Source: an uncultured Lachnospiraceae bacterium
Lineage (GTDB): Bacteria > Bacillota > Clostridia > Lachnospirales > Lachnospiraceae
Assembly (NCBI GenBank): GCA_900551115.1
Contig: URUY01000014.1
Coordinates: forward strand, 14,140 to 78,139
Reading direction: 5' to 3'
Length of the DNA: 64,000 bases
The notes beneath the pieces are model-generated. The model did not search any database, had not been told where the DNA came from, and saw only the letters and a program-made list of their open reading frames with translations. The translations under genes and the position numbers were made by a program. This document shows, one piece after another, positions 2,879-54,998 of this stretch. Position 1 is the first letter of the stretch. Each line of letters starts with the position of its first letter.

Positions 2879-4459
2879 TTACTTCCCGCTATCTCCATAA
2901 TTTGACAATACCCGTGCAGACGGGTCGTTTACATTGCATCCTTCCCATTCTTTATTTGGCATCCAGAAATCAATTATCATTTCCGCCTGTCCCGGATAGT
3001 ATTTTTCAAAAATTTCGCGATATGCCAGGGATTCTTTTGTAAATGGCCTTGCAAAATCATATTTCTTACATCCCTCCTCAAATTCCTCATCCGAGTACAG
3101 CTTCTCCGCATAGTCTTTCAAATAGTCCACCATAGAGTGTCCTACTGCATCCGAAAATGCCGCTTTTTCCCGATAAAGTATTTCATCAGGGAGATAATCA
3201 CCCTTGAACGCATATCTTAACAAATATTTTCCTTTCCCATAGATATTACGTTTTTTCTCCGGGTCGATTGCCATAACATACTTCACAAAATCCAAATCCC
3301 CGAACGGTACTCTTGCTTCCAGGGAATTTACAGATATGCACCTGTCAGCTCTCAGTACATCATACATATGCAATTCCCTGATTCTTTTACAGGCTTCCTT
3401 TTGAAAGGCTTCTGCGTCCGGTGCAAAATCAGTATATTTATATCCGAATAATTCATCTGAAATTTCACCGGTCAATATTACCCTGATATCCGTAGATTCG
3501 TGGATTGCCTTACAAATAAGATACATACCCATACTTGCCCGTATTGTTGTAATGTCATAGGTTCCGAGCAATGCAATGACTGTTTCCAGTGCTGAAAGCA
3601 CATCCTCTTTCGTGATGATAACCTCGGTATGCTCACTGCCGATATAGTCCGCTACCTGCTTTGCATACTTTAAATCAATGGCATCCTCGCTCATTCCGAT
3701 TGCAAATGTCTTAATCGGCTCTTTGCTCTTCTTTGCAGCAATCGCACATACCAGCGAGGAATCCAGTCCGCCGGAAAGTAAAAATCCAACCTTTGCATCT
3801 GCTACCAGTCTCTTTTCCACACCGGCAACAAGCTTATCATGTATGTTTTTGCATATCGTTTCCAAATCATCACAAATCACTTCATCTACCCGGGTCATAT
3901 CTCTGTAACAAATGAACTTTCCGGCTTTATAATAATGTCCCGGCGGGAACGGCATTACCTTATCCACTAGCTGCACCAGGTTTTTAGGCTCACTTGCAAA
4001 ACAGATGACTCCGTTCCTGTCATACCCGTAATACAAAGGCCTGATGCCAATCGGATCCCTTGCCGCAATGTATTCTCCGCTTTCACCATCATATACTATC
4101 AATGCATATTCTGCATCGAGCATGGAAAACATTTTTATTCCATACTCTCTGTACAGCGGTAACAGAATCTCGCAGTCGCTGTCGCTTTTAAATGAATAGC
4201 CCTTTTGCGTAAGCTGCTTTTTTAAGCCTTCAAATCCATAGATTTCTCCGTTACATACTATATAACTGCCATCAAGCTCAAACGGTTGCATTCCTTCCTC
4301 TGTAAGCCCCATAATAGCAAGTCTGTGAAAGCCTAAAAAGCCTTTGCCTGTATCGATAATCCTGGAATCATCAGGACCTCTTGAAATTGTTTTTTCAAAC
4401 CCCTTCTTAAATAACTCCAAAGTGGCGCCATGACCACAAAATCCCATAATAGAACACAT
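2879..4459 (-). CDS. asnB: asparagine synthase (glutamine-hydrolysing)
   Basis: 526 aa. N-terminal MCS… (Ntn amidotransferase Cys2). SGGLDSS PP-loop motif. ATG with GGAGGA RBS. Confidence 0.9.
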   Translation of the reverse strand: MCSIMGFCGHGATLELFKKGFEKTISRGPDDSRIIDTGKGFLGFHRLAIMGLTEEGMQPFELDGSYIVCNGEIYGFEGLKKQLTQKGYSFKSDSDCEILLPLYREYGIKMFSMLDAEYALIVYDGESGEYIAARDPIGIRPLYYGYDRNGVICFASEPKNLVQLVDKVMPFPPGHYYKAGKFICYRDMTRVDEVICDDLETICKNIHDKLVAGVEKRLVADAKVGFLLSGGLDSSLVCAIAAKKSKEPIKTFAIGMSEDAIDLKYAKQVADYIGSEHTEVIITKEDVLSALETVIALLGTYDITTIRASMGMYLICKAIHESTDIRVILTGEISDELFGYKYTDFAPDAEAFQKEACKRIRELHMYDVLRADRCISVNSLEARVPFGDLDFVKYVMAIDPEKKRNIYGKGKYLLRYAFKGDYLPDEILYREKAAFSDAVGHSMVDYLKDYAEKLYSDEEFEEGCKKYDFARPFTKESLAYREIFEKYYPGQAEMIIDFWMPNKEWEGCNVNDPSARVLSNYGDSGK

Positions 4460-8443: not shown

Positions 8444-8570
8444 CCTCCTTGTTTTTGCGAAGCAAAAATCCGAACCCCATGTGAGGAGAGGATTTGCCTC
8501 CTTGTTTTTGCGAAGCAAAAATCCGAACTCCCACGTGAGGAGAGGATTTGCCTCCTTGTTTTTGACTATC
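8444..8570 (-). repeat. tandem direct repeat, 2.3 copies of a ~53-nt module in the glnN 5'UTR
   Basis: CCTCCTTGTTTTTGCGAAGCAAAAATCCGAAC…GTGAGGAGAGGATTTGC repeated at 8444, 8497 and partially at 8551, with ~97% identity. In RNA sense each copy carries AAGGAGG paired to CCUCUCCU plus a UUUUUGC-UUC-GCAAAAA hairpin. Confidence 0.8.
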
Positions 8571-8571
8571 T

Positions 8572-8624
8572 ATAAGAGAAAAGCGCCTTTAATGTTTAAA
8601 AACATTAAAGACGCCATTGCCTTC
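8572..8624 (-). promoter_or_regulatory. leader attenuator upstream of glnN: P1 hairpin (GAAGGC-AAUGGC-GUCUUU) overlapping a 15-bp intrinsic terminator
   Basis: mRNA sense GAAGGCAAUGGCGUCUUUAAUGUUUUUAAACAUUAAAGGCGCUUUUCUCUU. Terminator stem GCGUCUUUAAUGUUU/AAACAUUAAAGGCGC followed by a U-tract. Confidence 0.6.
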
Positions 8625-14600: not shown

Positions 14601-16228
14601 CCAATATATACGCTTGTAGAAGTAACTACCTCTTCCCTGATTGCATCAATCGGCGGATTGGTTACCTGTGCAAACATTTGCTTAAAGTAGTGAGATAATT
14701 GATGATGTGTCTTAGACAGCACCGGGATTGGTGAATCTACTCCCATTGCCGCAATAGCTTCACTGCCGCTGCGCGCCATGGGCAGTATGCTTGACTTTAA
14801 TTCATCAAAGGTATATCCAAAGGCCTTTTGCATTCTCTGCCTTTCCTCGTTCGTATACTCATAAACTTTCACATTGGGTATTTTAAGCTCCTTAAGCGTT
14901 ACCAGATTGGAATCAAGCCACTCCCCATACGGTCTTTTTAAAGCAAAAGCTTCCTTAATGGTGTCATCATCAAGCAGCTTTCCCTTTACGGTATCCACAA
15001 GAAGCATTTTCCCCGGTCTTAATCTGTCCTTCTTAATAATCCTTGCATTATCTATCGGCAGAACACCCACCTCTGAGGAAAGAATCAGCTGGCCATCATC
15101 CGTAATGTAATAACGCGAAGGGCGCAGTCCGTTTCTGTCAAGCACGGCCCCCATAATATCCCCATCCGAAAACAATATAGAGGCAGGACCATCCCACGGC
15201 TCCATCATAGTTGCATAATACTGATAAAAATCTTTTTTATGCTGGCTCATCGTTTTATTGTTTGCCCAGGGCTCCGGAATGGTAATCATAACTGCCAACG
15301 GAAGCTCCATCCCGCTCATTACCAAAAACTCAAGGGTATTATCAAGCATGGCAGAATCCGACCCCTGTTCATTCACAACAGGCAAAACCTTATGAAACTC
15401 GCGGCTTAAATGTTCCGATTCCATATTTTCTTCTCTTGCCAGCATTTTATCTACATTTCCGCGAATTGTATTAATTTCTCCATTGTGAACAATAAATCTG
15501 TTTGGATGCGCTCTTTCCCAGCTTGGGTTCGTATTGGTAGAAAATCTGGAATGGACAATTGCGATTGCCGATTTGTATTCCCCGCTCTGCAAATCAGGGA
15601 AAAATGTCCGCAGCTGTCCTACTAAAAACATTCCCTTATATACAATCGTTCTGCTGCTTAAAGACACAACATAGGTATTGTCCGTACTCTGCTCAAAAAC
15701 ACGTCTTGCAATATAGAGCTTTCTATCAAAATCAAGTCCAATCTCTACATCGGAGGGTTTCCTGACAAATGCCTGCATAATATAGGGCATGCATTCTACT
15801 GCCCTTTTTCCCAAAACTTCCGGTACGCACGGAACTTTTCTCCATCCGATAAATTCCATTCCCTCTTTTTCCACAATAATCTCAAACATCTTTTTTGCCT
15901 GATTTCGCTTCAGCTCATTCTGCGGAAAAAAGAACATACCTACCCCATATTCTCTTTCCTTCCCAAGCTTCAGGTTTAAAGGCTCTGCCTGTTTTACAAA
16001 AAAGCTGTGGCATATCTGTACGAGAATACCCACGCCGTCTCCTGTTTTGCCTTCTGCATCCTTGCCGGCTCTATGCTCAAGATTTTCTACAATCATCAAT
16101 GCCTTTTCTACCGTATCATGGGTTTTTTCTCCGTTAATATTAACAACTGCCCCAATACCGCAGTTATCATGTTCAAACTTTTCACTGTACAACGGTGCCC
16201 TTTGCTTTTCAGATTTTGCATCAAACAT
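11687..16228 (-). CDS. gltB: glutamate synthase large subunit
   Basis: 1513 aa. N-terminal Ntn amidotransferase Cys (…HDNCGIG…), FMN-binding and GXGXG domains. Immediately upstream of gltD. Confidence 0.95.
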   Translation of the reverse strand: MFDAKSEKQRAPLYSEKFEHDNCGIGAVVNINGEKTHDTVEKALMIVENLEHRAGKDAEGKTGDGVGILVQICHSFFVKQAEPLNLKLGKEREYGVGMFFFPQNELKRNQAKKMFEIIVEKEGMEFIGWRKVPCVPEVLGKRAVECMPYIMQAFVRKPSDVEIGLDFDRKLYIARRVFEQSTDNTYVVSLSSRTIVYKGMFLVGQLRTFFPDLQSGEYKSAIAIVHSRFSTNTNPSWERAHPNRFIVHNGEINTIRGNVDKMLAREENMESEHLSREFHKVLPVVNEQGSDSAMLDNTLEFLVMSGMELPLAVMITIPEPWANNKTMSQHKKDFYQYYATMMEPWDGPASILFSDGDIMGAVLDRNGLRPSRYYITDDGQLILSSEVGVLPIDNARIIKKDRLRPGKMLLVDTVKGKLLDDDTIKEAFALKRPYGEWLDSNLVTLKELKIPNVKVYEYTNEERQRMQKAFGYTFDELKSSILPMARSGSEAIAAMGVDSPIPVLSKTHHQLSHYFKQMFAQVTNPPIDAIREEVVTSTSVYIGTDGNLLEDKQENCNVLKVNNPILTNTDMLKIKHMKREGFQVAVVPILYYKNTGLERAIDRLCVEVDRVYREGANIIILSDRGVDENHVAIPSLLAVSALQRHLVRTKKRTSVALIIESAEPREVHDFATLLGYGACAVNPYLALESVKELIENGMLDKDYYAAVDDYNSAILHGIVKIASKMGISTIQSYQGSQIFEALGIDDAVINKYFTNTVCRIGGITLKDIEKEVDMLHSKAFDPLGLATDLTLDSPGQHKLRGGAEEHLYNPATIHMLQQSTMRGDYHMFKQYTSMLDNEDSVRNIRGLLELQYSEKPLPLEEIESVDSIVTRFKTGAMSYGSISKEAHETLAIAMNRLHGKSNSGEGGEDLDRMVTAGESIDKCSAIKQVASGRFGVTSRYLVSAKEIQIKMAQGAKPGEGGHLPAGKVYPWIAKTRHSTAGVGLISPPPHHDIYSIEDLAQLIFDLKNSNKDAEISVKLVSEAGVGTVAAGVAKAGAQVVLISGYDGGTGAAPKSSIHNAGLPWELGLAETHQTLIQNGLRNKVRIETDGKLMTGRDVAIAAMLGAEEFGFATAPLVTMGCVMMRVCNLDTCPVGVATQNPELRKRFKGKPEYVINFMRFIAEELREYMAKLGVHSVDELVGRSDLLKCRETLPKGTKRLDLSKILDNPYAQEHVTFDKKKAYDFELAKTLDEKVLLKKLKESLKTGEAKSIEISVKNTDRAFGTILGSEITKRFDDTLAEDTYKIICKGGGGQSFGAFIPKGLTLELSGDSNDYFGKGLSGGKLIVYPPKESSFVPDENIIIGNVALYGATSGKAFVCGIAGERFCVRNSGAIAVVEGVGDHGCEYMTGGRVAVLGDTGKNFAAGMSGGVAYVLDANNDLYMRVNKEMVSISEVTEKRDAAELKNMIEEHTAATGSRKGKKILEGFEAYLPKFKKIIPHDYERMQRCITMLEEKGLSAEEARIEAFYSSVHS

Positions 16229-16249: not shown

Positions 16250-16316
16250 TTTCTGTTAAAAAAGGCAAAGAAATCTCTAATGCACATAATTGCATGAAAG
16301 ACGTCTTTGCCTTTTA
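16250..16316 (-). promoter_or_regulatory. second (promoter-distal) attenuator in the gltB leader: P1 hairpin (AAAGGC-AAAGAC-GUCUUU) overlapping a long terminator + U6
   Basis: mRNA sense AAAAGGCAAAGACGUCUUUCAUGCAAUUAUGUGCAUUAGAGAUUUCUUUGCCUUUUUUAA. Confidence 0.6.
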
Positions 16317-37404: not shown

Positions 37405-39072
37405 ATGAGAGTACTATGGGATAATTTCAGTATCAGAACTAAATTTTTACTGCAGCTTTTATCGGTTACTGTTATCACGATTTCCATTATTTCAGGCTAT
37501 TATATCTTTGAATCCTCACAGACGCTGAAAAAGGAGCTGATATCCGGCAATTTAAGCGTCCTTGATAAAAGTATGCTAAATGTGACCAAAGAGCTGGACA
37601 CCATTGTCAACTCTGCCAATACCCTTGCCAATTATACGCCTTTAATCAACGCATTTTCCATAAATTATGAAGACGTCTTTCAGCTGCATGATGTATATGA
37701 AAAAGAGATTACTCCCATTATCTCCATTATGGAATATCCCAATCCCTATATGAATCACGTTAAATTCTATATCGACAATGATTCCTTTCATTTCTATAAC
37801 ATTATGCCCATTGACGAAGCCCGTGGCGAAGAATGGTTTGACTCAATATGCAGCAGCAGGGATTATTATATAACCGGCCATTATAATAATACCATCAGTA
37901 TCATCAGCAAAACCGTAAGCAGTCAATCCGGCTGCATCATCTATGTACCGGTTAATATCAATCGCCTGTTTAAAGACATGGTATACCTGGACGATTCCTT
38001 ATATATCATAAAGTTTGGAGATGAAATTGTAGGAACCTTTCCCGAACAGCTTCATATAACAGATACCTCCGACACATTTCTGCAGTATAACGGTAATCAC
38101 TATACAAAGCTGGCGGTCAGGTCGGATAAATATGATTTGGAAATTATAAAGTATGTAAACAATTCCCATTTGGTTATTGATTTAAATGCAACCCTTTGGA
38201 AATTTTGTTTTATTATTTTTCTCCTGTTTACAGCCATATTCTTCTTATCGCTTATGTTTTCAAAGAGCATTACGAAAAAAATAAAGCTGCTAAATGACTC
38301 TATGAATATAATTGAGCAGGGCAATTTTAACCTTGTGCTTCCTAATACCAGTAAGGATGAGGTGGGACAGCTGACAGATAAGTTTAATGTTATGACGCAA
38401 AAAATTAACCAGCTTATTAAGGATATCGTACAAAACAGCATACGAAACAAAGAACTGGAGGTAAAGCTTCTCAGTGCCCAGATAAAGCCGCATTTTTTAT
38501 ATAACACCCTGTCAACTATAAGCTGGATGGCAACCTTTGAGTATACCGATGAAATAAAAGAAATTGTAGAAAACATCTGCGCCTTTTATCGAACCAGTTT
38601 AAATAACGGAGGAAATTTTACCACGGTTAAGGATGAGCTGTTAAATATTAAATCCTATATCACTTTAGAGCAATTTATGCATCCTGATTTATTTGACGTA
38701 TCCTACGAAATCGAAGATGACGTCCTCAGCCGTCAAATCCCCAATTTCATACTGCAGCCTTTTGTAGAAAACAGCATTGTCCATGCTTTCAATAAAATGA
38801 GAACCGGAAAAGGAGGTCTTGTACTCAAGGCCGTATATTCACAAAATGAGATTCTTTTCACCATTTCCGATAACGGAATCGGCATTGAACCGAATACGCT
38901 CGCTAAGCTGCTTGTAACATCAAATCCTAAAAACAACTACGGTATTTACAATGTCAACAAGCGTCTCGAACTGCTGTACGGGACCGGTTATCCCTATATA
39001 CAGATTGAAAGCCAAATCTTACGGGGCACCTGCGTTACAATACGCATTCCCGACTGCCATAAAGCCGACTGA
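37405..39072 (+). CDS. yesM: sensor histidine kinase (YesM-like)
   Basis: 555 aa with TM, HAMP and His_kinase internal region (…QIKPHFLYNTLSTISWMA…) plus HATPase_c. Confidence 0.85.
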   Translation: MRVLWDNFSIRTKFLLQLLSVTVITISIISGYYIFESSQTLKKELISGNLSVLDKSMLNVTKELDTIVNSANTLANYTPLINAFSINYEDVFQLHDVYEKEITPIISIMEYPNPYMNHVKFYIDNDSFHFYNIMPIDEARGEEWFDSICSSRDYYITGHYNNTISIISKTVSSQSGCIIYVPVNINRLFKDMVYLDDSLYIIKFGDEIVGTFPEQLHITDTSDTFLQYNGNHYTKLAVRSDKYDLEIIKYVNNSHLVIDLNATLWKFCFIIFLLFTAIFFLSLMFSKSITKKIKLLNDSMNIIEQGNFNLVLPNTSKDEVGQLTDKFNVMTQKINQLIKDIVQNSIRNKELEVKLLSAQIKPHFLYNTLSTISWMATFEYTDEIKEIVENICAFYRTSLNNGGNFTTVKDELLNIKSYITLEQFMHPDLFDVSYEIEDDVLSRQIPNFILQPFVENSIVHAFNKMRTGKGGLVLKAVYSQNEILFTISDNGIGIEPNTLAKLLVTSNPKNNYGIYNVNKRLELLYGTGYPYIQIESQILRGTCVTIRIPDCHKAD

Positions 39073-46401: not shown

Positions 46402-47334
46402 TTATTTATTCCTGTAAATCAGATATTCTGTAAGCTTCTGTAAAAAGTCTGACTCTTTCGAGCATTCTTTTAAAAGAGATACCGCCTCACCGGAAAGCCG
46501 CCTCACCTCTTCTCTTGCATGGGAAAGTCCCATCAGCGTCACATAGGTCTGCTTGTGGTTCTTTTCGTCACTTCCCACCGCTTTGCCCAATTCCGCTTCA
46601 TTGCCTGTAACATCTAAAATATCATCCTGAATCTGAAAGGCCATGCCGATGCTGTAGGCGCACTTTTCCATGGCTGCTACCGTTTCCTTCTCTGCTCCGG
46701 CTAACACCGCGCCTATCATCATGGAAGCCTGTATCAGAGCCGCCGTCTTGTGTTCATGGATAAAAAGAAGCTTATCCGCTTCTATGGAGGTTTCTTTTTC
46801 TGCTTCTATATCTGCGGTCTGCCCGCCAATCATACCGTAAATACCGGCCTTTTTTGCCAGTATCGAAAGGGCTTCTGCTGCTTTTCCATACCGCTCCGCT
46901 ACCGGTATGCCGTCCACCGTACAGGAATCAAAAGCAGTAAGCGCCGTTTCAAAGGCATAATTTAAAAGAGCATCACCGGCCAGTACTGCCATGCCTTCCC
47001 CAAATACCACATGAGTGGTTTTTCTGCCGCGCCGGTATTCGTCATTGTCCATGGCCGGCAAGTCATCATGCACCAGGGAATAGGTGTGTATCATCTCTAT
47101 GGCAGCCATAAATGGCTCCACGATTCTGCCTCTCCCGCCGCACATACGGTAGGTTTCCTGCATAAGCATAGGCCGCAGCCGCTTACCGCCTGCCAGCACA
47201 CTGTAGCGCATTGCTTCAATTACTGCCCTTTGGAAGCCTTCTTCCTTCGGCAGAAAACGCTCTATAATCTTCTCTATTTCCTCTGCTTTTTGTGCAATCG
47301 CCGTTTCAATGGCTGTCTCTTTTGCTGCGCCCAT
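46402..47334 (-). CDS. ispA: farnesyl/geranyl diphosphate synthase (polyprenyl synthetase)
   Basis: DDLPAMDND and DDILD aspartate-rich motifs. Start moved to ATG (MGAAKE) with AAGGAG RBS. Confidence 0.85.
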   Translation of the reverse strand: MGAAKETAIETAIAQKAEEIEKIIERFLPKEEGFQRAVIEAMRYSVLAGGKRLRPMLMQETYRMCGGRGRIVEPFMAAIEMIHTYSLVHDDLPAMDNDEYRRGRKTTHVVFGEGMAVLAGDALLNYAFETALTAFDSCTVDGIPVAERYGKAAEALSILAKKAGIYGMIGGQTADIEAEKETSIEADKLLFIHEHKTAALIQASMMIGAVLAGAEKETVAAMEKCAYSIGMAFQIQDDILDVTGNEAELGKAVGSDEKNHKQTYVTLMGLSHAREEVRRLSGEAVSLLKECSKESDFLQKLTEYLIYRNK

Positions 47335-47741: not shown

Positions 47742-48972
47742 CCTCTTTCTCCTTCTCCAATGCCAAAAGGCTCTTTTTATCAGTTACCCTTGCAAAAATC
47801 TGCCCGTCCGTTACATGGATAGTAACCAAATCCTCAGGACGTACCTGTTCTATTTTACGAACGGCCCTGCCGTCTGCCGCTTCCACATAGGAATATCCCT
47901 GATTCAGCTTTGTGAGCGGGGACATGCCTTTAAACTGCTCAACTAAAATTGCCAGCCTGTGACGGCTGTCTCTAAGCGCTTCTTCCATCCCACGGGTCAG
48001 GCTCTCTTCCAACTTCATCGCATGAGTCTTTCTGTCTCTGATACGGCTCTGCGGGCTTAAGAACTGTATACGCAGCCGTTCTCTCTCCGCCTTTGTACGG
48101 CTTTCCTGAAGTCTTGTGCGCATCTGCTTAAACAGCTTTTCCCTGCAGGAACTGAGTGAAAACATAAGCTGTTCAAATTCACAGACCGCCAGCTCCGCAG
48201 CCGCCGAGGGAGTCGGCGCACGAAGGTCCGCCACAAAATCAATGATTGTCGTATCCGTTTCATGTCCTACTGCTGATATAATGGGAATTTCACTGTCAAA
48301 AACTGCCTGTGCCACAATCTCCTCATTAAACGCCCATAAATCCTCTAAGGACCCTCCGCCGCGGCCTACTATCATAGCATCTACGCCTTGCCTTTCAAGT
48401 GCCCGGATACCGTTTACAATGCTCTGTGCCGCTGCTTCTCCCTGTACAATGGCAGGATAAAGAATAATCTTAATATAGGGATTTCTTCTTTTTGCCACAT
48501 TGATAATATCCCTTACCGCTGCCCCCGTAGGCGCCGTTACTACGCCCAGTGTATGAATATACTTTGGAACGGGACGTTTGTACTGTGCAGCAAACATACC
48601 CCGTTCCTCCAGTTCCCGTTTCAGCTCTTCAAATTTTTCGTAGAGATAGCCCGCACCATCCTGTACAATCTGTTTTGCATACATCTGGTATTTGCCGTCC
48701 CGCTCATATACATCCACGGTACCGCCCACCACTACCTGCATGCCCTCACGAAGCACAAATTTCAGCCCGTTCCTGTTACCTGCAAACATAACACAGGACA
48801 GCGTACCTTTTTCATCCTTTAACGTAAAATAAATATGTCCAGAGGAATGATATTTACAGTTGCTCACTTCTCCTCTGATAAAAAGCGACTGTAACATAAA
48901 ATCCTGCATGAACATATTTTTTATATACGCATTCACTTGTGCCACTGTATAAATATTTTGTATAGTAACCAC
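47716..48972 (-). CDS. xseA: exodeoxyribonuclease VII large subunit
   Basis: 418 aa with OB-fold N-terminus and ExoVII_LU catalytic region. Confidence 0.9.
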   Translation of the reverse strand: MVTIQNIYTVAQVNAYIKNMFMQDFMLQSLFIRGEVSNCKYHSSGHIYFTLKDEKGTLSCVMFAGNRNGLKFVLREGMQVVVGGTVDVYERDGKYQMYAKQIVQDGAGYLYEKFEELKRELEERGMFAAQYKRPVPKYIHTLGVVTAPTGAAVRDIINVAKRRNPYIKIILYPAIVQGEAAAQSIVNGIRALERQGVDAMIVGRGGGSLEDLWAFNEEIVAQAVFDSEIPIISAVGHETDTTIIDFVADLRAPTPSAAAELAVCEFEQLMFSLSSCREKLFKQMRTRLQESRTKAERERLRIQFLSPQSRIRDRKTHAMKLEESLTRGMEEALRDSRHRLAILVEQFKGMSPLTKLNQGYSYVEAADGRAVRKIEQVRPEDLVTIHVTDGQIFARVTDKKSLLALEKEKEDVFRGEIC

Positions 48973-48978
48973 CGTGCC

Positions 48979-49377
48979 TTATGCAAACTTAGCCAAAACT
49001 GCGTTGACAAAAGCGCCTGCGCTCTCCTGCCCAAACTTTTTGGCGATTTCTACTGCTTCATTAATAGCTACGCTCACCGGCACGTCCTCATCAAACTGCA
49101 TTTCAAAAAGCGCCAGCCTAAGCACGGTCAGTTCTACCTTACCCATGCGCTCTACGTCCCAGTTCTCAGCTTTTTTGTTAAGCTGCTCGTCAATTTCGGA
49201 CAGCTTTTCCATAACCCTGTTATATTTGCCGGTAATATAGGCTGCATCTTCAGCAGAACGCTGTACTTCATCGTCCTCTAAAAACATCTGTATCTGTTCC
49301 GGCATGTCCGACAGGCTGTTAAATTCTATGCGAAACAACAGAAGAAAAATCTGTTCTCTCAGTTCTCGTCTACCCAT
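48979..49377 (-). CDS. nusB: transcription antitermination factor NusB
   Basis: 132 aa NusB family. Confidence 0.9.
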   Translation of the reverse strand: MGRRELREQIFLLLFRIEFNSLSDMPEQIQMFLEDDEVQRSAEDAAYITGKYNRVMEKLSEIDEQLNKKAENWDVERMGKVELTVLRLALFEMQFDEDVPVSVAINEAVEIAKKFGQESAGAFVNAVLAKFA

Positions 49378-49394
49378 ATATAACCATCCTGCTA

Positions 49395-49772
49395 TTATTT
49401 ATTCTTCTGCATGTTGACACCGGCAATGCGGATATTTACATCTGTTACATTAAGCCCTGTCATATTTTCAATAGCTGCTTTTACTTTGGTCTGTACCTTT
49501 TGGCAGATAGCCGGAATATTGTAGCCGTATTCTACAACAACAGCCAAATCCACTGTCACATTTTTATCAAAAATATCTACCTTCACGCCTTTGTTCAGGT
49601 TCTTTACTCCTACCTTGCTCATCAGCTCGCCGGTCATATTGCCCGCCATGGCAGATACACCGTCAACTTCTCTGGCTGCCAATCCGGCTATCATCACTAC
49701 AACATCATCCGCAATCTGTACTGCACCGATATTTTCATCATCCTGTAAAACAAAAGTATTTCTGTCTTCCAT
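49395..49772 (-). CDS. Asp23/Gls24 family alkaline-shock/envelope stress protein
   Basis: 125 aa, Asp23 family. GGAGG RBS. Confidence 0.85.
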   Translation of the reverse strand: MEDRNTFVLQDDENIGAVQIADDVVVMIAGLAAREVDGVSAMAGNMTGELMSKVGVKNLNKGVKVDIFDKNVTVDLAVVVEYGYNIPAICQKVQTKVKAAIENMTGLNVTDVNIRIAGVNMQKNK

Positions 49773-49789
49773 TTATTAATCCTCCCTGC

Positions 49790-49965
49790 CTTTAGACTGC
49801 CCTGTCCTTTAGGGTAAAATGATTGTCCTGTCCTTTAGGGCAGATATTCTACCCCTTTTTTAAGGGCAATCATTTTGCCCTTTTTCAAAGGGCAGTATTT
49901 CTACCCTTCTTCAAAGGGCAGTCATTTTGCCCTTCTTTAAAGGGCAGTATTTCTACCCTTCTTCA
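49790..49965. repeat. tandem array of ~7 copies of a 26-nt unit (consensus yAAAGGGCAGTATTTCTACCCTTCTT), each unit an imperfect hairpin
   Basis: Units visible at ~49790, 49816, 49842, 49868, 49894, 49920 and 49946 with drifting sequence (…TTTAGGGCAGATATTCTACCCC…, …AAGGGCAATCATTTTGCCCTT…). There are no unique spacers. Confidence 0.75.
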
Positions 49966-50097
49966 AAGGGCAGAGCCGCGAAAAACCACTGGTTTTCCGC
50001 GGTCGCTTCGCTCGCCGAATGTCTGTACGAATCTCTGTATCTGTCCAAATAAATTTGGCAGATACAGAGATTCGTACAGCCGCCCGGCTCTGCCCTT
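49966..50097. repeat. ~130-bp palindromic element: outer 14-bp IR (AAAGGGCAGAGCCG / CGGCTCTGCCCTTT) enclosing an 11-bp near-perfect IR and a 21-bp perfect IR with palindromic loop
   Basis: Inner hairpins: GCGAAAAACCAcTGGTTTTCCGC and CTGTACGAATCTCTGTATCTGtCCAAATAAATTTGGcAGATACAGAGATTCGTACAG. The outer IR shares AAAGGGCAG with the 26-nt units. Confidence 0.75.
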
Positions 50098-50119
50098 TGC
50101 GAACATTATATCACACCGT

Positions 50120-51358
50120 TTATTCATTCACAAGCCAAAAAGTCATGGAATGGTTGTCTGCATCTTCGGCATAAGCTATTACGCCGTCCGTGCTGTTCAG
50201 ATAGTCAAATATCTTCTGACCTGTGATAAGCTGTTCATAAAATTCGTCATATACTGCTTTGTCTGAGCATTTCAGGGTTATGTCCTGTCTGCCCGTTTCA
50301 TAGCCTTTTTCAAAAAAGGCCGCTACCTGTGCCGTATCATAGGCCGTAAAATAAGCACCCTCCATAATATAGTAATTGGCATCCATGGAGGTACACTCCG
50401 GCAACGGCACAACATTATCAATAACATGTGTTTTTAAAAGCTGTTCGGTGGTAACGCAGAGATAATCGTAATTGATGGCGGGCAGGGAGTCAACGCTTAG
50501 GCTCCCCTCGGACTCTACCACCTGATACGACGCATCTCCCCAGGTTGCATCTACATAATAAAAGCTGCCGTCTATCTGTACCAGATTCCATGCATGGCTT
50601 TCCCCGTTATACACGCTGCCGATAACCAAGGTGGAAGGAACAGCTAACTTTTCCAAAAGATACTGCGCCGCCTTTGCATACCCCTGACATACTGACCGTC
50701 TGTCTATAAATACCGAGCAGATATTCTGATTTTCCGGCGCCTGCTGGTCATACTCGGTATTTAACACCAAATACTGATACACATATTTTACTTTTTCATA
50801 GTCGGAGGCATCCATGCTGATATGGGACAGGCATTCATCCACTGCGCTGTCTATCAGTTGTTTACATTCCTTTCTCGCAGCAGCATCCATGGTATAGGTT
50901 CCGGAAAAGCTGATTTTCTCAGTCTCCCCGCCATATGTATAAAGTGTATAGGTATAACCCTTTACATAAAACATTTCCGGATGGTCATTCATAACGCATT
51001 GAAAGATTTTGTCGATATCCTGCTCATCTATGGCAGCATCCGTCAGCGGAGACAGAATCACATCCGTATACATACCTTCCATAATAGCGTACATATCCTC
51101 GTACCACATCTGTTCCTCCGCAGTTAAGCTTTCGTAACAGTATCTGCCGCTTTGGTCTTTCTTATGCAGAAGTGCCGACTCTTCTCCCAGTGTGACAGGC
51201 GTGGCTATTTCCTGTAACGGCTTGCTGCCCTGCCCTGCACCGCTTTCTTCCTTATAGGGGAACGCGCATGCACTCAGGCAGAATACGCACAGAAATACCG
51301 GCAGAAATATTTTATTTTTTTTAGTTTTTACCAAATTCAGAAAGCACCAGCCCTTCAT
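50120..51358 (-). CDS. transglutaminase-like cysteine-protease-fold lipoprotein
   Basis: Lipoprotein signal (…IFLPVFLCVFCLSAC). Transglutaminase core (…CQGYAKAAQYLLEKLAVPSTLVIG…SHAWNLVQIDGSFYYVDATWGD). The 5' end overlaps the prfC 3' end, so the start is uncertain (ATG 51358, or an in-frame TTG nearer the signal peptide). Confidence 0.7.
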   Translation of the reverse strand: MKGWCFLNLVKTKKNKIFLPVFLCVFCLSACAFPYKEESGAGQGSKPLQEIATPVTLGEESALLHKKDQSGRYCYESLTAEEQMWYEDMYAIMEGMYTDVILSPLTDAAIDEQDIDKIFQCVMNDHPEMFYVKGYTYTLYTYGGETEKISFSGTYTMDAAARKECKQLIDSAVDECLSHISMDASDYEKVKYVYQYLVLNTEYDQQAPENQNICSVFIDRRSVCQGYAKAAQYLLEKLAVPSTLVIGSVYNGESHAWNLVQIDGSFYYVDATWGDASYQVVESEGSLSVDSLPAINYDYLCVTTEQLLKTHVIDNVVPLPECTSMDANYYIMEGAYFTAYDTAQVAAFFEKGYETGRQDITLKCSDKAVYDEFYEQLITGQKIFDYLNSTDGVIAYAEDADNHSMTFWLVNE

Positions 51359-52916
51359 TTCTGTCAAGAGTCATCCCCACGCTCCATGAATTAATAAAGA
51401 GCAGCAGCGGATTCCCCTTGAGATCCTGTATTTTTTTCATATCGGAGGTTCCTGTCAGCCGGTTCAAATCAATATCCTTATTTTCAATCCACCTGATGTG
51501 TTCGTATGGCAACGGCTCCAACCGGATTTCCACATTATATTCATTTTCCAGGCGGTACTTTAAAACGTCAAACTGCAGCACGCCTACTACGCCTACAATG
51601 ATTTCCTCCATACCGGTATTAAACTCCTGAAAAATCTGAATGGCGCCTTCCTGTGCAATTTGGGAAACGCCCTTGATAAACTGCTTTCTTTTCATTGTAT
51701 CAAGCTGGCGTACTCTCGCAAAATGCTCCGGTGCAAAGGTAGGGATGCCGTCATAACAGAACTTCTCCTTAGGCATGCACAGCGTATCCCCGATGGAAAA
51801 AATACCGGGGTCAAACACACCGATAATATCGCCTGCATAGGCCTCATTTAAAATCTTTCTTTCATCTGCCACAATCTGCTGGGGCTGTGAAAGACGCATT
51901 ACCTTGTTGCCCTGCACATGGCGCACCTCCATGCTGGCATCAAATTTTCCTGAACAGATACGCATAAACGCAATTCTGTCCCTGTGGGCTTTGTTCATAT
52001 TTGCCTGAATCTTAAATACAAAGGCTGAAAATTCCCTTTCTGTGGGGTCTATCAGCCCTATATCCGCTTTTCTGGGAAGGGGTGTGGTAGTCATCTGCAG
52101 AAAGTGCTGTAAAAACACTTCCACACCAAAATTTGTCAGAGCAGAACCGAAGAATACCGGGGTCAAATCACCGCTTCTGACCTCATCCAGATTAAATTCC
52201 GCACTGGCACCGTCCAAAAGCTCGATTTCATCATAAAGCCTGTCCGCAGCCTCTTCTCCGATAATGGATGTAAGCTCGTCCTTGTTCTCTACGGAAATTT
52301 CCCTGGTTGAGCCTTCTTTTGTACCCTTTTCCGTATCGGAATAAATCAGCACCGCATTCTTATTCCGGTCATATACGCCCTTGAAGCCTTTTCCCGAACC
52401 GATGGGCCAGTTGACGGGACAGGTAGCAATTCCCAGTTCCTTTTCAATCTCATCAAGCAGCTCAAAGGTATCGTTGGCATCCCTGTCCATCTTGTTTATA
52501 AAGGTAAAAATAGGGATTTTCCGCATTACGCATACCTTGAAAAGCTTTCTTGTCTGCGCCTCTACGCCCTTTGACGCATCAATAACCATGACTGCCGAAT
52601 CAGCTGCCATCAGGGTACGGTAGGTATCTTCCGAGAAATCCTGATGTCCCGGTGTATCCAGAATATTGATGCAGAATCCGTCATATTCAAACTGCAATAC
52701 GGAGGAGGTGACGGAAATACCCCTCTCCTTTTCTATTTCCATCCAGTCCGACACCGCATGTCTGGCGGTAGCCTTTCCTTTTACACTGCCCGCCAGATTA
52801 ATGGCGCCGCCATAAAGCAGAAATTTCTCCGTCAAGGTTGTCTTACCTGCATCAGGATGGGATATAATCGCAAAGGTCCTTCTTCTGTTTATCTCGTCTG
52901 CATAGTTTACTGCCAC
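51321..52916 (-). CDS. prfC: peptide chain release factor 3
   Basis: Translational GTPase (AIISHPDAGKTT…DTPGH…). ORF-track start is TTG; GTG at 52916 preceded by TGGAGGA (7-nt spacer) is more likely. Confidence 0.85.
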   Translation of the reverse strand: MAVNYADEINRRRTFAIISHPDAGKTTLTEKFLLYGGAINLAGSVKGKATARHAVSDWMEIEKERGISVTSSVLQFEYDGFCINILDTPGHQDFSEDTYRTLMAADSAVMVIDASKGVEAQTRKLFKVCVMRKIPIFTFINKMDRDANDTFELLDEIEKELGIATCPVNWPIGSGKGFKGVYDRNKNAVLIYSDTEKGTKEGSTREISVENKDELTSIIGEEAADRLYDEIELLDGASAEFNLDEVRSGDLTPVFFGSALTNFGVEVFLQHFLQMTTTPLPRKADIGLIDPTEREFSAFVFKIQANMNKAHRDRIAFMRICSGKFDASMEVRHVQGNKVMRLSQPQQIVADERKILNEAYAGDIIGVFDPGIFSIGDTLCMPKEKFCYDGIPTFAPEHFARVRQLDTMKRKQFIKGVSQIAQEGAIQIFQEFNTGMEEIIVGVVGVLQFDVLKYRLENEYNVEIRLEPLPYEHIRWIENKDIDLNRLTGTSDMKKIQDLKGNPLLLFINSWSVGMTLDRNEGLVLSEFGKN

Positions 52917-53015
52917 GTTCTTGTCCTCCAAATTTATTCGCCGGGGCTTACGCCTCCATATTGTCTGTATAAGCCTGCCGCTTTCCTGTTTTTATGTCTG
53001 CCGCCTTTTCTTACT

Positions 53016-54170
53016 TCAATCAAGCATACTGCTGCCGGGAAACGCAGGCGTCAAATCAAAATATTGTAACACGGTTGCCCCGATATCCGCAAAGGTTTTT
53101 CTTGTCCCAAGATTGCCCGGCTGTACCTTTTTTCCATATAGTAAAAGCGGGGTATACTCTCTCGTATGGTCCGTTGTCTCCGTATAACCCGGATCGCAGC
53201 CATGGTCCGCTGTAATCATTAACAGGTCATCCTCCTTAAGCCCGGCAAGTATACAGGGCAGCTTTTCATCAAAAGCAGCAAGCGCTTTTGCATAGCCGTC
53301 AATATCCCTGCGGTGACCGTAGAGCATATCGTAATCTACCAGATTAATAAAGCAGAGTCCTTCAAAATCCTTGGAAAGATACCCCAGTGTCTGTTCGATT
53401 CCCTCTGCATTGCTCTTTGTATACACATGCTCCGTAATCCCGCACCCGGCAAAGATATCATAAATTTTGCCTACGGCAATAACCGATTTCCCATTTTCCT
53501 TAAGCTGGTCCAACATGGTAACGGCAGGGGGCTTTAATGAAAAATCATGCCTTCGCGCCGTCCGCACATAGCTGCCGGCTTCTCCCGTAAAGGGCCTTGC
53601 TATGACTCTGCCCACGCCGTGCCTGCCTGTCAGGATACTGCGCGCAATAAGACAGTATTCATAAAGCTCCTCCACGGGCACCACGGATTCATGCGCGGCT
53701 ATCTGAAAGACACTGTCAGCCGATGTATACACAATCAGCTTACCGGTTTTTATATGCTCCTCTCCAAATGCCTTAATGACCTCCGTCCCGGAATAGGGTG
53801 CATTACAAAGTACGCCTCTGCCTGTCTTTTCACTAAATGCCGAAAGTACTTCCTCGGGAAAACCATCCGGATACACAGGCAGCGGCTGTCTGGAACAGAC
53901 ACCCGCTATTTCCCAATGCCCTATGGTTGTATCCTTACCCATGGAAGCCTCCGTCATCCGGGCATATCTGCCCAAAGGAGCCGCTTCCCGTTCCTTACAG
54001 GTAACGCCGTCAATATTGAAAAGTCCCATTTTTTTCATGTGTGGCATGGAAAAATAAGGGCTTTTAGCAACTGTACCCAGTGTATTTGCGCCCTTGTCGC
54101 CAAAATCCGGTGCATCCGGCATAGCGCCGATTCCAAAGCTGTCCAAAACTATCAGAAAAATCCTTTTCAT
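53016..54170 (-). CDS. deoB: phosphopentomutase
   Basis: 384 aa. N-terminus MKRIFLIVLDSFGIG is typical of DeoB. Confidence 0.9.
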   Translation of the reverse strand: MKRIFLIVLDSFGIGAMPDAPDFGDKGANTLGTVAKSPYFSMPHMKKMGLFNIDGVTCKEREAAPLGRYARMTEASMGKDTTIGHWEIAGVCSRQPLPVYPDGFPEEVLSAFSEKTGRGVLCNAPYSGTEVIKAFGEEHIKTGKLIVYTSADSVFQIAAHESVVPVEELYEYCLIARSILTGRHGVGRVIARPFTGEAGSYVRTARRHDFSLKPPAVTMLDQLKENGKSVIAVGKIYDIFAGCGITEHVYTKSNAEGIEQTLGYLSKDFEGLCFINLVDYDMLYGHRRDIDGYAKALAAFDEKLPCILAGLKEDDLLMITADHGCDPGYTETTDHTREYTPLLLYGKKVQPGNLGTRKTFADIGATVLQYFDLTPAFPGSSMLD

Positions 54171-54227: not shown

Positions 54228-54998
54228 TTACTGTACAACCGTACTGATAATGATATTTGCGGCTTCTGCATCTGTTTTTCTTTTTACAATATCTTCTATC
54301 TGCGCCCTCTGTGCATCCGTCAGTTCAGCAGCATTTACTACAACATCCACACTGTCTCCGTTTATACTCACTACCACATCAGAAAAGCCTTTTGCTTCCA
54401 GCAGGATTTCAGCACCCATTTCCTGCTCTGCAATAGTCGTCATGGCAACCATGGTGTCCACCGCGCTCTGCTTCTGCTCATCGCTTAAAGCGGTACTGTT
54501 AATGATTTCAAGCAGCGTTTCTTTATTTTTTGCCCGTACCTGTTCCTTTAACATTTTCGCTTCAGAGAGGTTGGTTACGGAAGCGGTTCCCGTAAATACT
54601 GCTTCTCCGGGTATTTCTCCTTCCGCAGGCGTTTCCACTTCACCGGAGGCTGCATTTGCCAAAGCATCCTGACCCGGTACTGCTTCCATACCCTCTTCTA
54701 AGTAATCCTCCATAATCACATCCACATCCGAATCCAGACTCTCTATCTCCGTAAGCTGCCCGGAAGAAATATCTTCCTCCGATAAATCCAATAATCCGTC
54801 CAGAGAATAGTCATCCACCACACCGTCTGCTGTAAAATTTTCCGTACCTGCCTGTTCAAGAGCCTGTGCCTCTCCCGATGCGGGCAGATACTCTTCTTTA
54901 TCCAGATTGGTACCTGCAAACTGTAAGTATCCGGCCACAGCAATCATAATTGCCAGCGCGGTAATCATAAGTTGGTTCTTTTTAAGAATATTTTTCAC
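54228..54998 (-). CDS. spoIIIAH: stage III sporulation protein AH
   Basis: N-terminal TM, acidic linker and YscJ/FliF-like C domain. Last gene of the spoIIIA operon. Confidence 0.8.
   Translation of the reverse strand: MKNILKKNQLMITALAIMIAVAGYLQFAGTNLDKEEYLPASGEAQALEQAGTENFTADGVVDDYSLDGLLDLSEEDISSGQLTEIESLDSDVDVIMEDYLEEGMEAVPGQDALANAASGEVETPAEGEIPGEAVFTGTASVTNLSEAKMLKEQVRAKNKETLLEIINSTALSDEQKQSAVDTMVAMTTIAEQEMGAEILLEAKGFSDVVVSINGDSVDVVVNAAELTDAQRAQIEDIVKRKTDAEAANIIISTVVQ

Follow-up and report, generated by a model that had tools for sequence, protein, structure and literature searches.

A length-variable element of palindromes and tandem hairpins in the predicted asp23-nusB leader of an uncultured gut Lachnospiraceae species

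The asp23-nusB locus and its repeats

The window analyzed here, 64,000 nucleotides of a contig from an uncultured Lachnospiraceae bacterium, carries a dense set of inverted and tandem repeats directly upstream of asp23, in a neighborhood made up entirely of minus-strand genes. According to the list of open reading frames and to Pfam labels on identical loci, asp23 (49395-49772, minus strand) is the first gene downstream of the repeats and nusB (48979-49377, minus strand) is the second; xseA, xseB, ispA, dxs, and tlyA-like genes follow nusB on the same strand. A first-pass annotation of this DNA had placed the repeats at a synteny break, with prfC among the genes inserted ahead of asp23. The order prfC, transglutaminase-like gene, asp23 is, instead, the normal one in the related element-free Lachnospiraceae examined.

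A sigma-70-type promoter (50105..50133, minus strand) precedes the repeats. Its -35 sequence, TTGTGA, occupies 50133-50128, within the final codons of the upstream gene, and is separated by a 17-nt spacer from an extended -10 sequence, TGaTATAAT, that ends at 50105; the promoter-scan score is 10/12, plus the TG. The pattern TTGGCTTGTGAATGAAT.A ... TGnTATAAT is kept in related species, the rest of whose leaders are unrelated. Transcription of asp23 is predicted from the sequence to start near 50098 (+/-2), and the outer stem of the element starts at 50099, 5 nt past the -10. At the other end lies the ribosome-binding-site (RBS) proximal leader, UCUAAAGGCAGGGAGGAUUAAUAA plus ATG (49770..49796, minus strand), with the Shine-Dalgarno sequence GGAGG at 49781-49785 and the start codon at 49770-49772. 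Because it falls between the conserved extended -10 promoter and the asp23 ribosome-binding site, the element is predicted to form the 5' UTR of asp23-nusB-xseAB-ispA-dxs, in keeping with the location in the asp23 5' UTR first proposed for it. A small ORF within the leader was considered and dropped, as the sole ATG falls within the -10 element and has no Shine-Dalgarno sequence.

The promoter-proximal part of the element is a 136-bp block (49964-50099) in which a perfect outer inverted repeat surrounds two adjacent hairpins. An inverted-repeat search of the window gives this outer repeat, P1, a length of 15 bp (49964-49978 / 50085-50099) rather than the 14 bp first reported. The P1 5' strand, CAAAGGGCAGAGCCG (50085..50099, minus strand), stands at the predicted transcript 5' end and pairs with 49964-49978, and is paired in the minimum free energy structures of most alleles. 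The P1 3' strand, CGGCUCUGCCCUUUG (49964..49978, minus strand), has final 10 nt that double as the start of repeat unit 1. The long hairpin P2 (50014..50088, minus strand) has 35-nt arms (50014-50048 / 50054-50088) with 83% complementarity, within which 21-bp perfect arms (50023-50043 / 50059-50079) enclose a loop containing CCAAAT/ATTTGG, the palindromic loop that had been noted earlier; pairing of the loop extends the duplex to about 27 bp with one bulge, and the lower stem is GCCG/CGGC. The shorter hairpin, P3, reads CCGCGGAAAACC-AGU-GGUUUUUCGCGG (49976..50002, minus strand), its 13-nt arms (49976-49988 / 49990-50002) being 92% complementary and including one G-U pair of the sense RNA that becomes an A-C mismatch on the opposite strand. 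In the linker between P2 and P3, a GCGAAGC mini-hairpin motif (50005..50011, minus strand) was read from the sequence and forms a small stem in the folds. The block had been described as three nested inverted repeats; the outer repeat does enclose the others, but the inner hairpins lie side by side, in the manner of a three-way junction.

A tandem array of seven units of about 26 nt continues from the block (49797..49973, minus strand), with unit starts at 49973, 49947, 49921, 49895, 49869, 49843, and 49818. Tandem Repeats Finder and a repeat search bear out the earlier count of about seven head-to-tail units over 49795-49973, of which five are clear and two decayed. Tandem Repeats Finder describes the array at 49837-49973 with a period of either 26 (5.3 copies, 81% matches) or 52 (2.6 copies, 89%), and in the repeat search the 26-nt register reaches back to 49811, with a degenerate pair at 49795/49821. 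An 18-nt unit core has 4 matches with at most 1 mismatch, against 0.06 expected by chance at a 3-mismatch limit. Type A units (CTGCCCTTTGAAGAAGGGTAGAAATA) alternate with type B units (CTGCCCTTTAAAGAAGGGCAAAATGA), the final two units being degenerate. The motifs CTGCCCTT and AAGGG(C/T)AG take turns every 13 nt or so, and each CTGCCCTT can pair with the flanking AAGGG(C/T)A(G) on either side. An AAGGGCA/TGCCCTT hairpin had been assigned to every unit. On the plus strand it is perfect in B-type units only, while A-type units contain one C-A mismatch on that strand, which becomes a G-U pair in the minus-strand sense RNA. Units follow one another head to tail without intervening spacers, so the array is not a CRISPR, as had been recognized from the start.

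Variation among strains and relatives

Gene order and promoter are the same as in the window in the close relatives examined (about 40 loci). Some thirty species that share this gene order and have 70-90% identical Asp23 carry neither the palindrome nor the array. The intergenic region is just 47-60 nt in the closest relatives lacking the element (82-90% Asp23 identity), relative to which the element is extra DNA, as had been supposed; the median of the estimated spacers at 74 related loci is close to 100 nt. In the sister species, designated L093, Asp23 is 96% identical and the asp23 and nusB genes are about 92% identical in nucleotide sequence. Its spacer of 96 nt contains the outer stem and one P3-like hairpin, diverged from P3 and still foldable, with no P2 and no array. 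Across the promoter and the P1 5' strand, L093 is identical to the studied species at 66 of 66 positions, the 5' strand itself included.

Within the species, P1, P2, and P3 are kept together in 15 of 15 strains, and P2 occurs in all fifteen but neither in L093 nor in any other relative examined. The P3 loop has an A/T polymorphism between strains. The array varies far more, with roughly 0-1, 3, 4, 5, 6, or 7 units by strain, counts that depend on how the junction hairpin is counted. Its alleles have spacers of 189/190, 194, 246, 272, 294, 319, and 347 nt, and one of them carries a hairpin-loop inversion. The comparison with related strains that the first-pass annotation had proposed thus reveals both presence/absence and copy-number polymorphism.

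Tandem repeats may be collapsed or expanded when metagenomes are assembled from short reads, and unit numbers do differ between assemblies here. That the array is a mis-assembled or collapsed repeat is nevertheless extremely unlikely. The 7-unit allele of the window was found again in independent assemblies, L001 (3 samples) and L007; the 189-nt allele recurs in L002, L005, and L008, and the 246-nt allele in L101, L102, and L103, so that identical alleles come from independent samples and assemblers. Moreover, the units are non-identical and the alleles have distinctive junctions.

Within the species, the palindrome is about as diverse (pi 1.27%) as asp23 and nusB are at their third codon positions (about 1%), and strain L008 has an uncompensated mismatch in P2. 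For these two reasons we see no signal that the element is strongly constrained, and it may be nearly neutral. Elsewhere in the 64-kb window, a second UTR also contains a tandem duplication that varies between strains.

Local duplication and the mobile-element alternative

Taken in isolation, the element resembles a MITE or a REP-like insertion, which is what the first-pass annotation suggested it could be. Such a reading would have the 136-bp block, or the P2 palindrome of about 87 nt, inserted as a non-autonomous mobile element like MITEs, REP/BIME, BOX, or Correia sequences, mobilized by a transposase acting in trans and present in further genomic copies, with the tandem units serving as modules like boxB or BIME-2 pairs. 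Perfect terminal inverted repeats (15 bp in the outer repeat, 21 bp in P2) around a short non-coding element of some 90-136 bp agree with the MITE pattern (below about 300 bp), and the homologous site in related species lacks the element. Clusters of alternating palindromic units whose number differs between strains, as in REP/BIME, are present (roughly 0-7 units), a variable series of tandem hairpin modules being a property of both BOX and BIME (PMC3049150), and UTRs are frequent sites of such elements (PMC2649163).

We nevertheless consider this reading unlikely, since a dispersed family should have other members. About 84 kb of this genome (the 64-kb window and 20 kb of flank) yielded no second copy of any part, and a blastn-short search of it with the leader returned chance 11-12-mers only. 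The high copy number of REP/BIME is absent, with no hairpin unit elsewhere in the sequence searched. Beyond the locus, AAAGGGCAG has only 2 sites in the 64 kb, at 47223 (within the ispA coding region) and at 15799. Mismatch-tolerant searches with the unit, the outer repeat, the P2 arm, and P3 found no further copy in the window or in 109 related loci, nor did three scans of viral contigs or a distant blastn search of plasmids and phages. A concatenated six-frame translation of the element, meant to catch spurious ORFs called over other copies, had no match among 5.8 billion predicted proteins. A scan of JGI metagenomes with the 19-nt P2 arm returned two isolated chance matches, neither of them palindromic; the species' own locus is absent from that collection, and the outcome carries no weight. 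No transposase was called among the genes adjoining the locus.

The structure of the site points the same way. Compared with the short leaders of L094-L108 and with L093, that is, with empty or intermediate sites, no recognizable target-site duplication flanks the 136-bp block or P2, the boundaries being ambiguous, including those of the P2 insertion. In L093 the outer stem is present and the 21-bp palindrome is not; therefore the block was not inserted in one step, and the single insertion of about 130 bp first envisaged does not hold. The supposed terminal repeat and the units, furthermore, copy native RBS-adjacent sequence. The P1 5' strand corresponds, in reverse complement, to the native stretch directly 5' of the ribosome-binding site, every repeat unit is a variant of this motif, and AAAGGCAG in the RBS-proximal leader is a degenerate copy of the repeat motif. 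Membership in a MITE or REP family is not supported by the sequence searched, outside which a low-copy mobile family may exist.

On these sequence comparisons, the element most likely originated in local DNA events and not as the insertion of a dispersed mobile element. In this one uncultured species of gut Lachnospiraceae, the leader would have undergone a lineage-specific expansion from the usual length of about 25-35 nt to about 325 nt. An inverted copy of the RBS-adjacent motif (CUCUGCCCUU / AAGGGCAGAG) may first have created the outer stem around a small hairpin, a step of which L093 would be a present-day example. The near-perfect palindrome P2, about 87 nt, would then have been added within the outer stem, and replication slippage could have turned the RBS-adjacent hairpin into the 26/52-nt tandem array, whose copy number, and even loop orientation, would have remained strain-dependent. 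L093 could instead be a deletion derivative, and not an ancestor-like stage.

Pneumococcal BOX elements (boxA-boxB(n)-boxC) and enterobacterial BIME-2 clusters of REP sequences share with the element a modular palindromic architecture in which short palindrome arms alternate in orientation; they are likewise built of short tandem hairpin modules whose number varies by strain, are located in intergenic regions or UTRs, and are predicted to form stem-loops once transcribed (PMC3049150). Unlike BOX and BIME, which are dispersed in tens to hundreds of copies per genome, this element has a single known locus and no sequence similarity to them, its array is located beyond the outer inverted repeat, not between the arms, and its units derive from the local RBS region. 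Correia elements create a TA target duplication on insertion, and no duplication of that kind was found at the leader element. The Correia elements of Neisseria, like ERIC and RUP, are of similar size (about 100-150 bp) and similarly bounded by inverted repeats; they are frequently co-transcribed within UTRs, their long duplexes are bound or cleaved by RNase III, and they change expression of adjacent genes (PMC2649163). Correia elements are also multi-copy and can supply promoters, neither of which was found for the leader element, and in contrast to them the outer repeat here is older than the inner palindrome, going by the sister species L093.

The predicted leader RNA and its possible roles

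The leader RNA is predicted to form a three-way junction closed by P1, with a P2 stem of about 27 bp and a P3 stem of 12 bp, followed by small interchangeable hairpins. This near-perfect 27-bp duplex and the hairpins around it match the expectation, stated earlier, of a multi-hairpin RNA if the region is transcribed. Compared with shuffled sequences, the sense-strand fold of the full leader (-164.7 kcal/mol) has z = -13.3 and that of the minimal allele z = -10.0. In a comparison of the two strands, the sense strand folds slightly more stably than the antisense (-164.5 vs -158.0 kcal/mol) and has 11 G-U pairs against 5; one strain substitution turns a G-C pair into G-U, and does so in the sense RNA alone. 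Of the 10 expanded alleles that were folded, 8 combine a paired 5' end (P about 0.7 or more) with a largely free Shine-Dalgarno sequence. The two exceptions, L007 and L101, have a predicted 5' end that is mostly unpaired; the paired probability of the Shine-Dalgarno sequence ranges from 0.02 to 0.52 across folded alleles, and it is mostly unpaired.

Rfam gives no gathering-level match anywhere in the window, in accord with the earlier failure to recognize a tRNA, tmRNA, or riboswitch. In E-value mode, 48500-51500 yields sub-threshold matches only, mostly to eukaryotic miRNA and snoRNA models and all of them far below gathering scores, as generic hairpins would be expected to give. A Cheo/LexA box, a Spo0A box, a dif site, and an attC site were dropped on the sequence alone, and a retron was dropped for lack of a reverse transcriptase. 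An sRNA on the plus strand was likewise set aside, the promoter-like match there being a weak 9/12 and the terminator-like matches being the repeat hairpins.

The palindrome starts 21 nt past the upstream stop codon, and strong stem-loops can block 3' exonucleases (PMC3049150), so that it might belong to the transglutaminase-like gene, as a terminator or as a 3' protective stem-loop of read-through transcripts, and not to the asp23 mRNA. This is quite improbable. A terminator scan found no intrinsic terminator or attenuator on the minus strand within the leader, none of whose hairpins has a U-tract behind it in the sense direction; all terminator-like sites of the leader lie on the plus strand, from which no gene enters the element. 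Relatives lack a terminator here, the asp23 promoter extends into the end of the upstream gene, and the array would be left unexplained.

The units also bring to mind BoxA, the RNA site of NusB-NusE(S10). Lying in the leader of a NusB-encoding operon, they might imitate BoxA, recruit or titrate the Nus complex, and autoregulate nusB to a degree set by their copy number. The unit sequences are UGCCCUUUGAAGAA, UGCCCUUUAAAGAA, or UGCCCUUUGAAAAA, and the clostridial rRNA leaders retrieved contain GAACUUUGAAAA(C/U)U. These leaders are proxies from Oscillospiraceae, Acetoanaerobium, and C. difficile, with no Lachnospiraceae leader among them, and unit 4 shares the CTTTGAAAA core with those of two Clostridia, C. 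difficile and Acetoanaerobium. The full CUUUGAAAA core is present in unit 4 and in the single unit of strain L109. In rRNA leaders boxB precedes boxA, and here the P3 hairpin comes before the first unit. BoxA-mediated autoregulation of Nus factors is documented and has been proposed for nusB in Pseudomonas (PMC5725501); like the BoxA/Nus leaders of E. coli suhB and, as proposed, of Pseudomonas ribH-nusB, the leader described here has a U-rich sequence, GCCCUUUGAA / CUUUGAAAA, and it belongs to a NusB operon. The consensus GYUCUUUAANA is gamma-proteobacterial (PMC5725501), and against GYTCTTTAANA, which may not be the host's, B units match at best 9/10 specified positions and A units and unit 4 8/10.

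Every unit, however, has C in place of consensus T3, and all copies lie within strong predicted stems, while BoxA is recognized as single-stranded RNA; the folds offer no accessible single-stranded context. CTTTGAAA occurs within 200 nt upstream of asp23-nusB in none of 80 related species, and the sister species L093 reads UCUGGCCUUAAGG instead. Mismatched at position 3, buried in stems, arranged in tandem, and conserved in 0/80 related species, the motif departs from known BoxA leaders. The U-rich run of the units is accounted for simply as the complement of the purine-rich AAAGGG adjoining the ribosome-binding site. We therefore regard the BoxA resemblance as a curiosity of very low probability. 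No rRNA operon was found in the window or the related loci, and no Lachnospiraceae rRNA operon in PLSDB. A perfect TGCTCTTTGAAAA at 38269 (minus strand) is antisense inside a 555-aa ORF and was dismissed as chance; IMG/VR matches to the 16S 5' end were mosaics or unrelated. Were BoxA mimicry real, this gut species would have recently gained, ahead of its own nusB operon, a leader array of NusB-NusE(S10) sites that varies by strain, and with it copy-number-tunable autoregulation or titration of the Nus antitermination complex.

We lean modestly toward reading the element as a structured leader of local origin, made by inverted and tandem duplication, with a possible cis effect on the mRNA. If the element is active at all, its most likely role is in cis, as a determinant of mRNA half-life or processing, a role favored by the base-paired 5' end and the long P2 duplex predicted for the RNA. 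The RNA 5' end would lie directly in the 15-bp P1 stem, and the Shine-Dalgarno sequence would remain free. Base pairing at the 5' end is known to shield Bacillus mRNAs against 5'-end-dependent decay. Among stem-loop stabilizers at Firmicutes mRNA 5' ends, the B. subtilis aprE leader has a 5' stem-loop that stabilizes the mRNA (Hambraeus 2002, as cited in PMC3997798), and the likeness lies in a stem at or near the predicted 5' end and an accessible strong ribosome-binding site downstream. Unlike those stabilizers, the leader described here is about 325 nt, comprises three helices and an array, is polymorphic in length, and has a predicted 5' end. The long P2 duplex is a plausible RNase III site, transcribed palindromic repeats of Neisseria being bound or cut by that enzyme (PMC2649163), and repeat number would tune the effect on mRNA half-life or processing.

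The element is a real but local and fairly ordinary oddity, and either way the finding opens no long-standing question. If it has no effect, it cautions that palindromes bounded by inverted repeats and followed by tandem tails are not necessarily mobile elements. The natural series of spacers, 47, 96, 189, and up to 347 nt, illustrates how local inverted and tandem duplication can give rise to a structured 5' UTR and go on enlarging it. The operon behind this leader includes essential genes (nusB, dxs, and ispA). If the length alleles alter mRNA stability, they would constitute a strain-level tuning knob for expression, and would be a handy strain-typing marker for gut metagenomes.

Architecture and predicted promoter of the asp23 leader

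Every gene around the element lies on the minus strand (sequence of 49400-50700 and ORF list). In transcription order these are spoIIIAH (54228-54998), a phosphopentomutase-like gene (53016-54170), prfC (51321-52931), a gene for a transglutaminase-core protein with a lipoprotein-like N-terminus (50120-51367), and then, after a 347-nt spacer (49773-50119), asp23 (49395-49772) and nusB (48979-49377), followed by xseA, xseB, ispA, dxs, and a tlyA-like methyltransferase gene. These assignments match Pfam labels on identical public contigs. In the ORF listing, the transglutaminase-like gene and the end of prfC overlap by 47 nt.

The first-pass annotation had described 26-nt repeats plus palindromes in the spacer, and both Tandem Repeats Finder and a repeat search bear this out, with small corrections. 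The feature is real and reproducible. The array at 49837-49973 has a period of 26 (5.3 copies) or 52 (2.6 copies, 89% matches); the repeat search of the window carries the 26-nt register to 49811 and adds a degenerate pair at 49795/49821. A mismatch-tolerant search finds four occurrences of the unit core with at most one mismatch, against 0.06 expected. The adjoining 136-bp palindromic block (49964-50099) consists of an outer stem, P1, which is a perfect 15-bp inverted repeat (49964-49978/50085-50099); a long hairpin, P2 (50014-50088), whose 35-nt arms include 21 perfect base pairs at 50023-50043/50059-50079; and a short hairpin, P3 (49976-50002), with 13-nt arms. P2 and P3 stand side by side within the outer stem and are not nested in each other, as had been thought. 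The asp23 coding region (49649-49659) shares an 11-nt exact match, TGGCAGATACA, with a P2 arm at its inner end (50056-50066); with about 0.06 expected locally, it may trace the source of a template switch, or be chance. Imperfect inverted repeats with 24-25-nt arms also occur at 8574-8623, directly 3' of the glutamate dehydrogenase gene and terminator-like in appearance, and at 16260-16315.

The top-scoring promoter-like site within 49000-51000 reads TTGTGA, a 17-nt spacer, and TATAAT with a preceding TG (50133 to 50105, minus strand). Its -10 element lies five nucleotides from the outer stem, which begins at 50099; the usual -10 distance puts the start site at about 50098, and the whole element therefore falls in the predicted 5' UTR. 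A Shine-Dalgarno sequence, GGAGG (49781-49785, minus strand), lies near the leader's end, ahead of the ATG start codon of asp23 (49770-49772, minus strand). In the upstream regions we read, related species with otherwise unrelated leader sequence repeat the same layout, with the -35 in the final codons of the gene before asp23 and then TGnTATAAT, a recurrence which supports a genuine asp23 promoter. The last codons of the transglutaminase-like gene (…FWLVNE*) double as the -35 region, and this stretch is highly conserved across the examined Lachnospiraceae loci. Within the spacer, the scan predicted no sense-strand site resembling a terminator. Rfam gave no match to the element at gathering level; its E-value mode returned sub-threshold matches only, mostly to eukaryotic miRNA and snoRNA models.

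Variation among strains and related species

At least 23 public contigs of the uncultured Lachnospiraceae bacterium encode an Asp23 protein identical to that of the window. We compared 15 strain sequences (the window, L001-L010, L101-L103, and L109) with Asp23 99-100% identical. The locus is polymorphic: promoter and block are present in all 15, with only five segregating sites in the block, while the spacer ranges from 189 to 347 nt (alleles of 189/190, 194, 246, 272, 294, 319, and 347 nt). Parsed array tails show alternating units A (CTGCCCTTTGAAGAAGGGTAGAAATA) and B (CTGCCCTTTAAAGAAGGGCAAAATGA), from one hairpin (CTGCCCTTTAAAAAGGGCAG) to seven units per strain, and the L007 allele has an inverted loop in unit 4. 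Independent recovery of several alleles, from different samples and by different assemblers, shows the array to be a true variable-number tandem repeat and not an artefact of assembly. A second tandem duplication in a UTR, likewise strain-variable, lies at 8444-8564 in the minus-strand leader of a type III glutamine synthetase gene (starting at about 8436): its 54-nt unit is present in 2.3 copies, 97% identical, in the window and in 1.3 copies in two other strains (L121 and L122), and each unit carries CAAAAACAAGGAGG, with its own AAGGAGG, plus a complementary CCTCTCC that could form a Shine-Dalgarno-sequestering hairpin.

Scanning GTDB species representatives with Asp23 gave 80 Lachnospiraceae loci at up to 85% identity, and protein-guided look-ups added relatives at 86-96%. 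Upstream regions were read directly for the 30 closest GTDB loci (70-85% identical) and the look-up relatives; leaving aside L093, treated below, none has the palindrome or the array, and a motif search allowing mismatches found zero matches to parts of the element in the fetched related loci. The spacer is just 47-60 nt in the closest relatives (Asp23 82-90% identical), with an estimated median of about 100 nt across 74 loci. Most relatives read have the transglutaminase-like gene upstream of asp23, and a few have prfC directly upstream. The supposed synteny break at the element dissolves, since this gene order is the clade norm in relatives without the element and is unrelated to it. In another genus, an Acetatifactor sp. 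MAG (CANPYT010000025.1; L034, about 3700-4000) has roughly 135 nt of independently inserted sequence at the matching promoter/leader site upstream of asp23; the insert is GC-rich, with many hairpins, and bordered by duplicated TGGTATAATGATT (-10 region).

L093 represents a sister species, as judged from identities to the window of 96% for Asp23, about 92% (nucleotide) for asp23 and nusB, and 82% (nucleotide) for the upstream gene. Its spacer is 96 nt. A 66-nt stretch that takes in the 3' end of the upstream gene together with the promoter and CAAAGGGCAGAGCCGGG is identical to the window; a diverged P3-like hairpin, CTCTGGCCTTAAGGCAGGGAGG, and the start codon follow. The outer stem is present; the 21-bp palindrome and the array are absent.

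Origin of the element

The P1 5' strand is the reverse complement of native sequence immediately upstream of the ribosome-binding site, and all repeat units are variants of that same motif, which favors an origin by local duplication, both inverted and tandem, over the import of foreign DNA. The simplest history, with L093 as intermediate, would be stepwise: a short leader gained the outer stem and hairpin, P2 was added, and the hairpin adjacent to the ribosome-binding site was amplified. The opposite direction, with L093 a deletion derivative, is also conceivable.

A MITE or REP-like insertion, as first proposed, drew no support from the copy searches. No second copy was detected in the window, related loci, an additional 20 kb of the same genome flanking the window, viral contigs, or plasmids and phages; a six-frame translation used as a peptide query matched none of 5.8 billion predicted proteins. 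A scan of JGI metagenomes gave two chance matches, but that collection does not include the species itself and so has no bearing on the question. About 84 kb of genome without a second copy speaks against a REP-like family of high copy number; given that coverage, a MITE with few copies is possible, and no target-site duplication is visible in comparison with the sites in relatives and L093. Separately, five IMG/VR viral contigs (L111-L114, sample 3300045988; L115, sample 3300008268) carry short 16S rRNA mosaics, not full rRNA genes, in which the 5' end (GATGAACGCTGGCGG...GTCGAACGAAGCAC) is fused directly to GCAAGCGTTATCCGGATTTACTGGGTGTAAAGGGAGCG; the mosaics lie immediately 3' of a conserved small ORF.

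Predicted RNA structure and possible function

For the full leader, the predicted folding energy of the sense strand is -164.7 kcal/mol (z = -13.3); for the minimal allele it is -87.5 kcal/mol (z = -10.0). Ten alleles from the species and its sister were folded; in eight of them, all but L007 and L101, the first ten nucleotides are predicted to be largely paired within P1 (P ≥0.7). The Shine-Dalgarno sequence is mostly unpaired in the folds. Sense RNA is predicted to be slightly more stable than antisense, with more G-U pairs. One block substitution among the strains changes G-C to G-U on the sense strand only; two other segregating sites are in loops, one is a singleton that breaks P2, and the fifth is at the junction with the array. 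Nucleotide diversity (pi) in the block, at 1.27%, is close to the figure of about 1% for third codon positions in asp23 and nusB, so variation within the species shows no clear sign of constraint. Between the two sister species the promoter and the P1 5' strand are identical, which weakly hints at constraint.

It is very improbable that the units serve as functional BoxA mimics in the leader of the operon whose second gene is nusB. The unit GCCCUUUGAA does resemble BoxA, GYUCUUUAANA (PMC5725501), a gamma-proteobacterial consensus, and the CTTTGAAAA core of GAACTTTGAAAA, carried by rRNA operon leaders of two Clostridia, recurs in unit 4. However, the units without exception have C at BoxA position 3, the BoxA-like copies all lie within predicted stems, the sequence at this place differs in the sister species, and in none of 80 related species does the core occur in the 200 nt preceding asp23. 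A perfect BoxA-type match elsewhere, TGCTCTTTGAAAA (38257-38269, minus strand), is attributed to chance, being antisense within a 555-aa ORF (37405-39072, plus strand).

The evidence best supports a leader structure acting in cis, each functional step being inferred. The predicted 5'-terminal stem is of a type known to stabilize Bacillus mRNAs (Hambraeus 2002, as cited in PMC3997798). The duplex of about 27 bp would be a plausible RNase III substrate by analogy with Correia elements, which are such substrates (PMC2649163). The slippage-prone hairpin array may modulate these effects or be neutral.

In architecture the element resembles BOX, BIME, and Correia-type repeats, but it differs from them in showing, within the searches covered, neither multiple copies nor target duplication. 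As read from the sequence comparisons, it is a lineage-specific, strain-variable 5' UTR of predicted structure, and the asp23 leader would add a new example to a known kind, the palindromic and tandem intergenic repeats found in UTRs.
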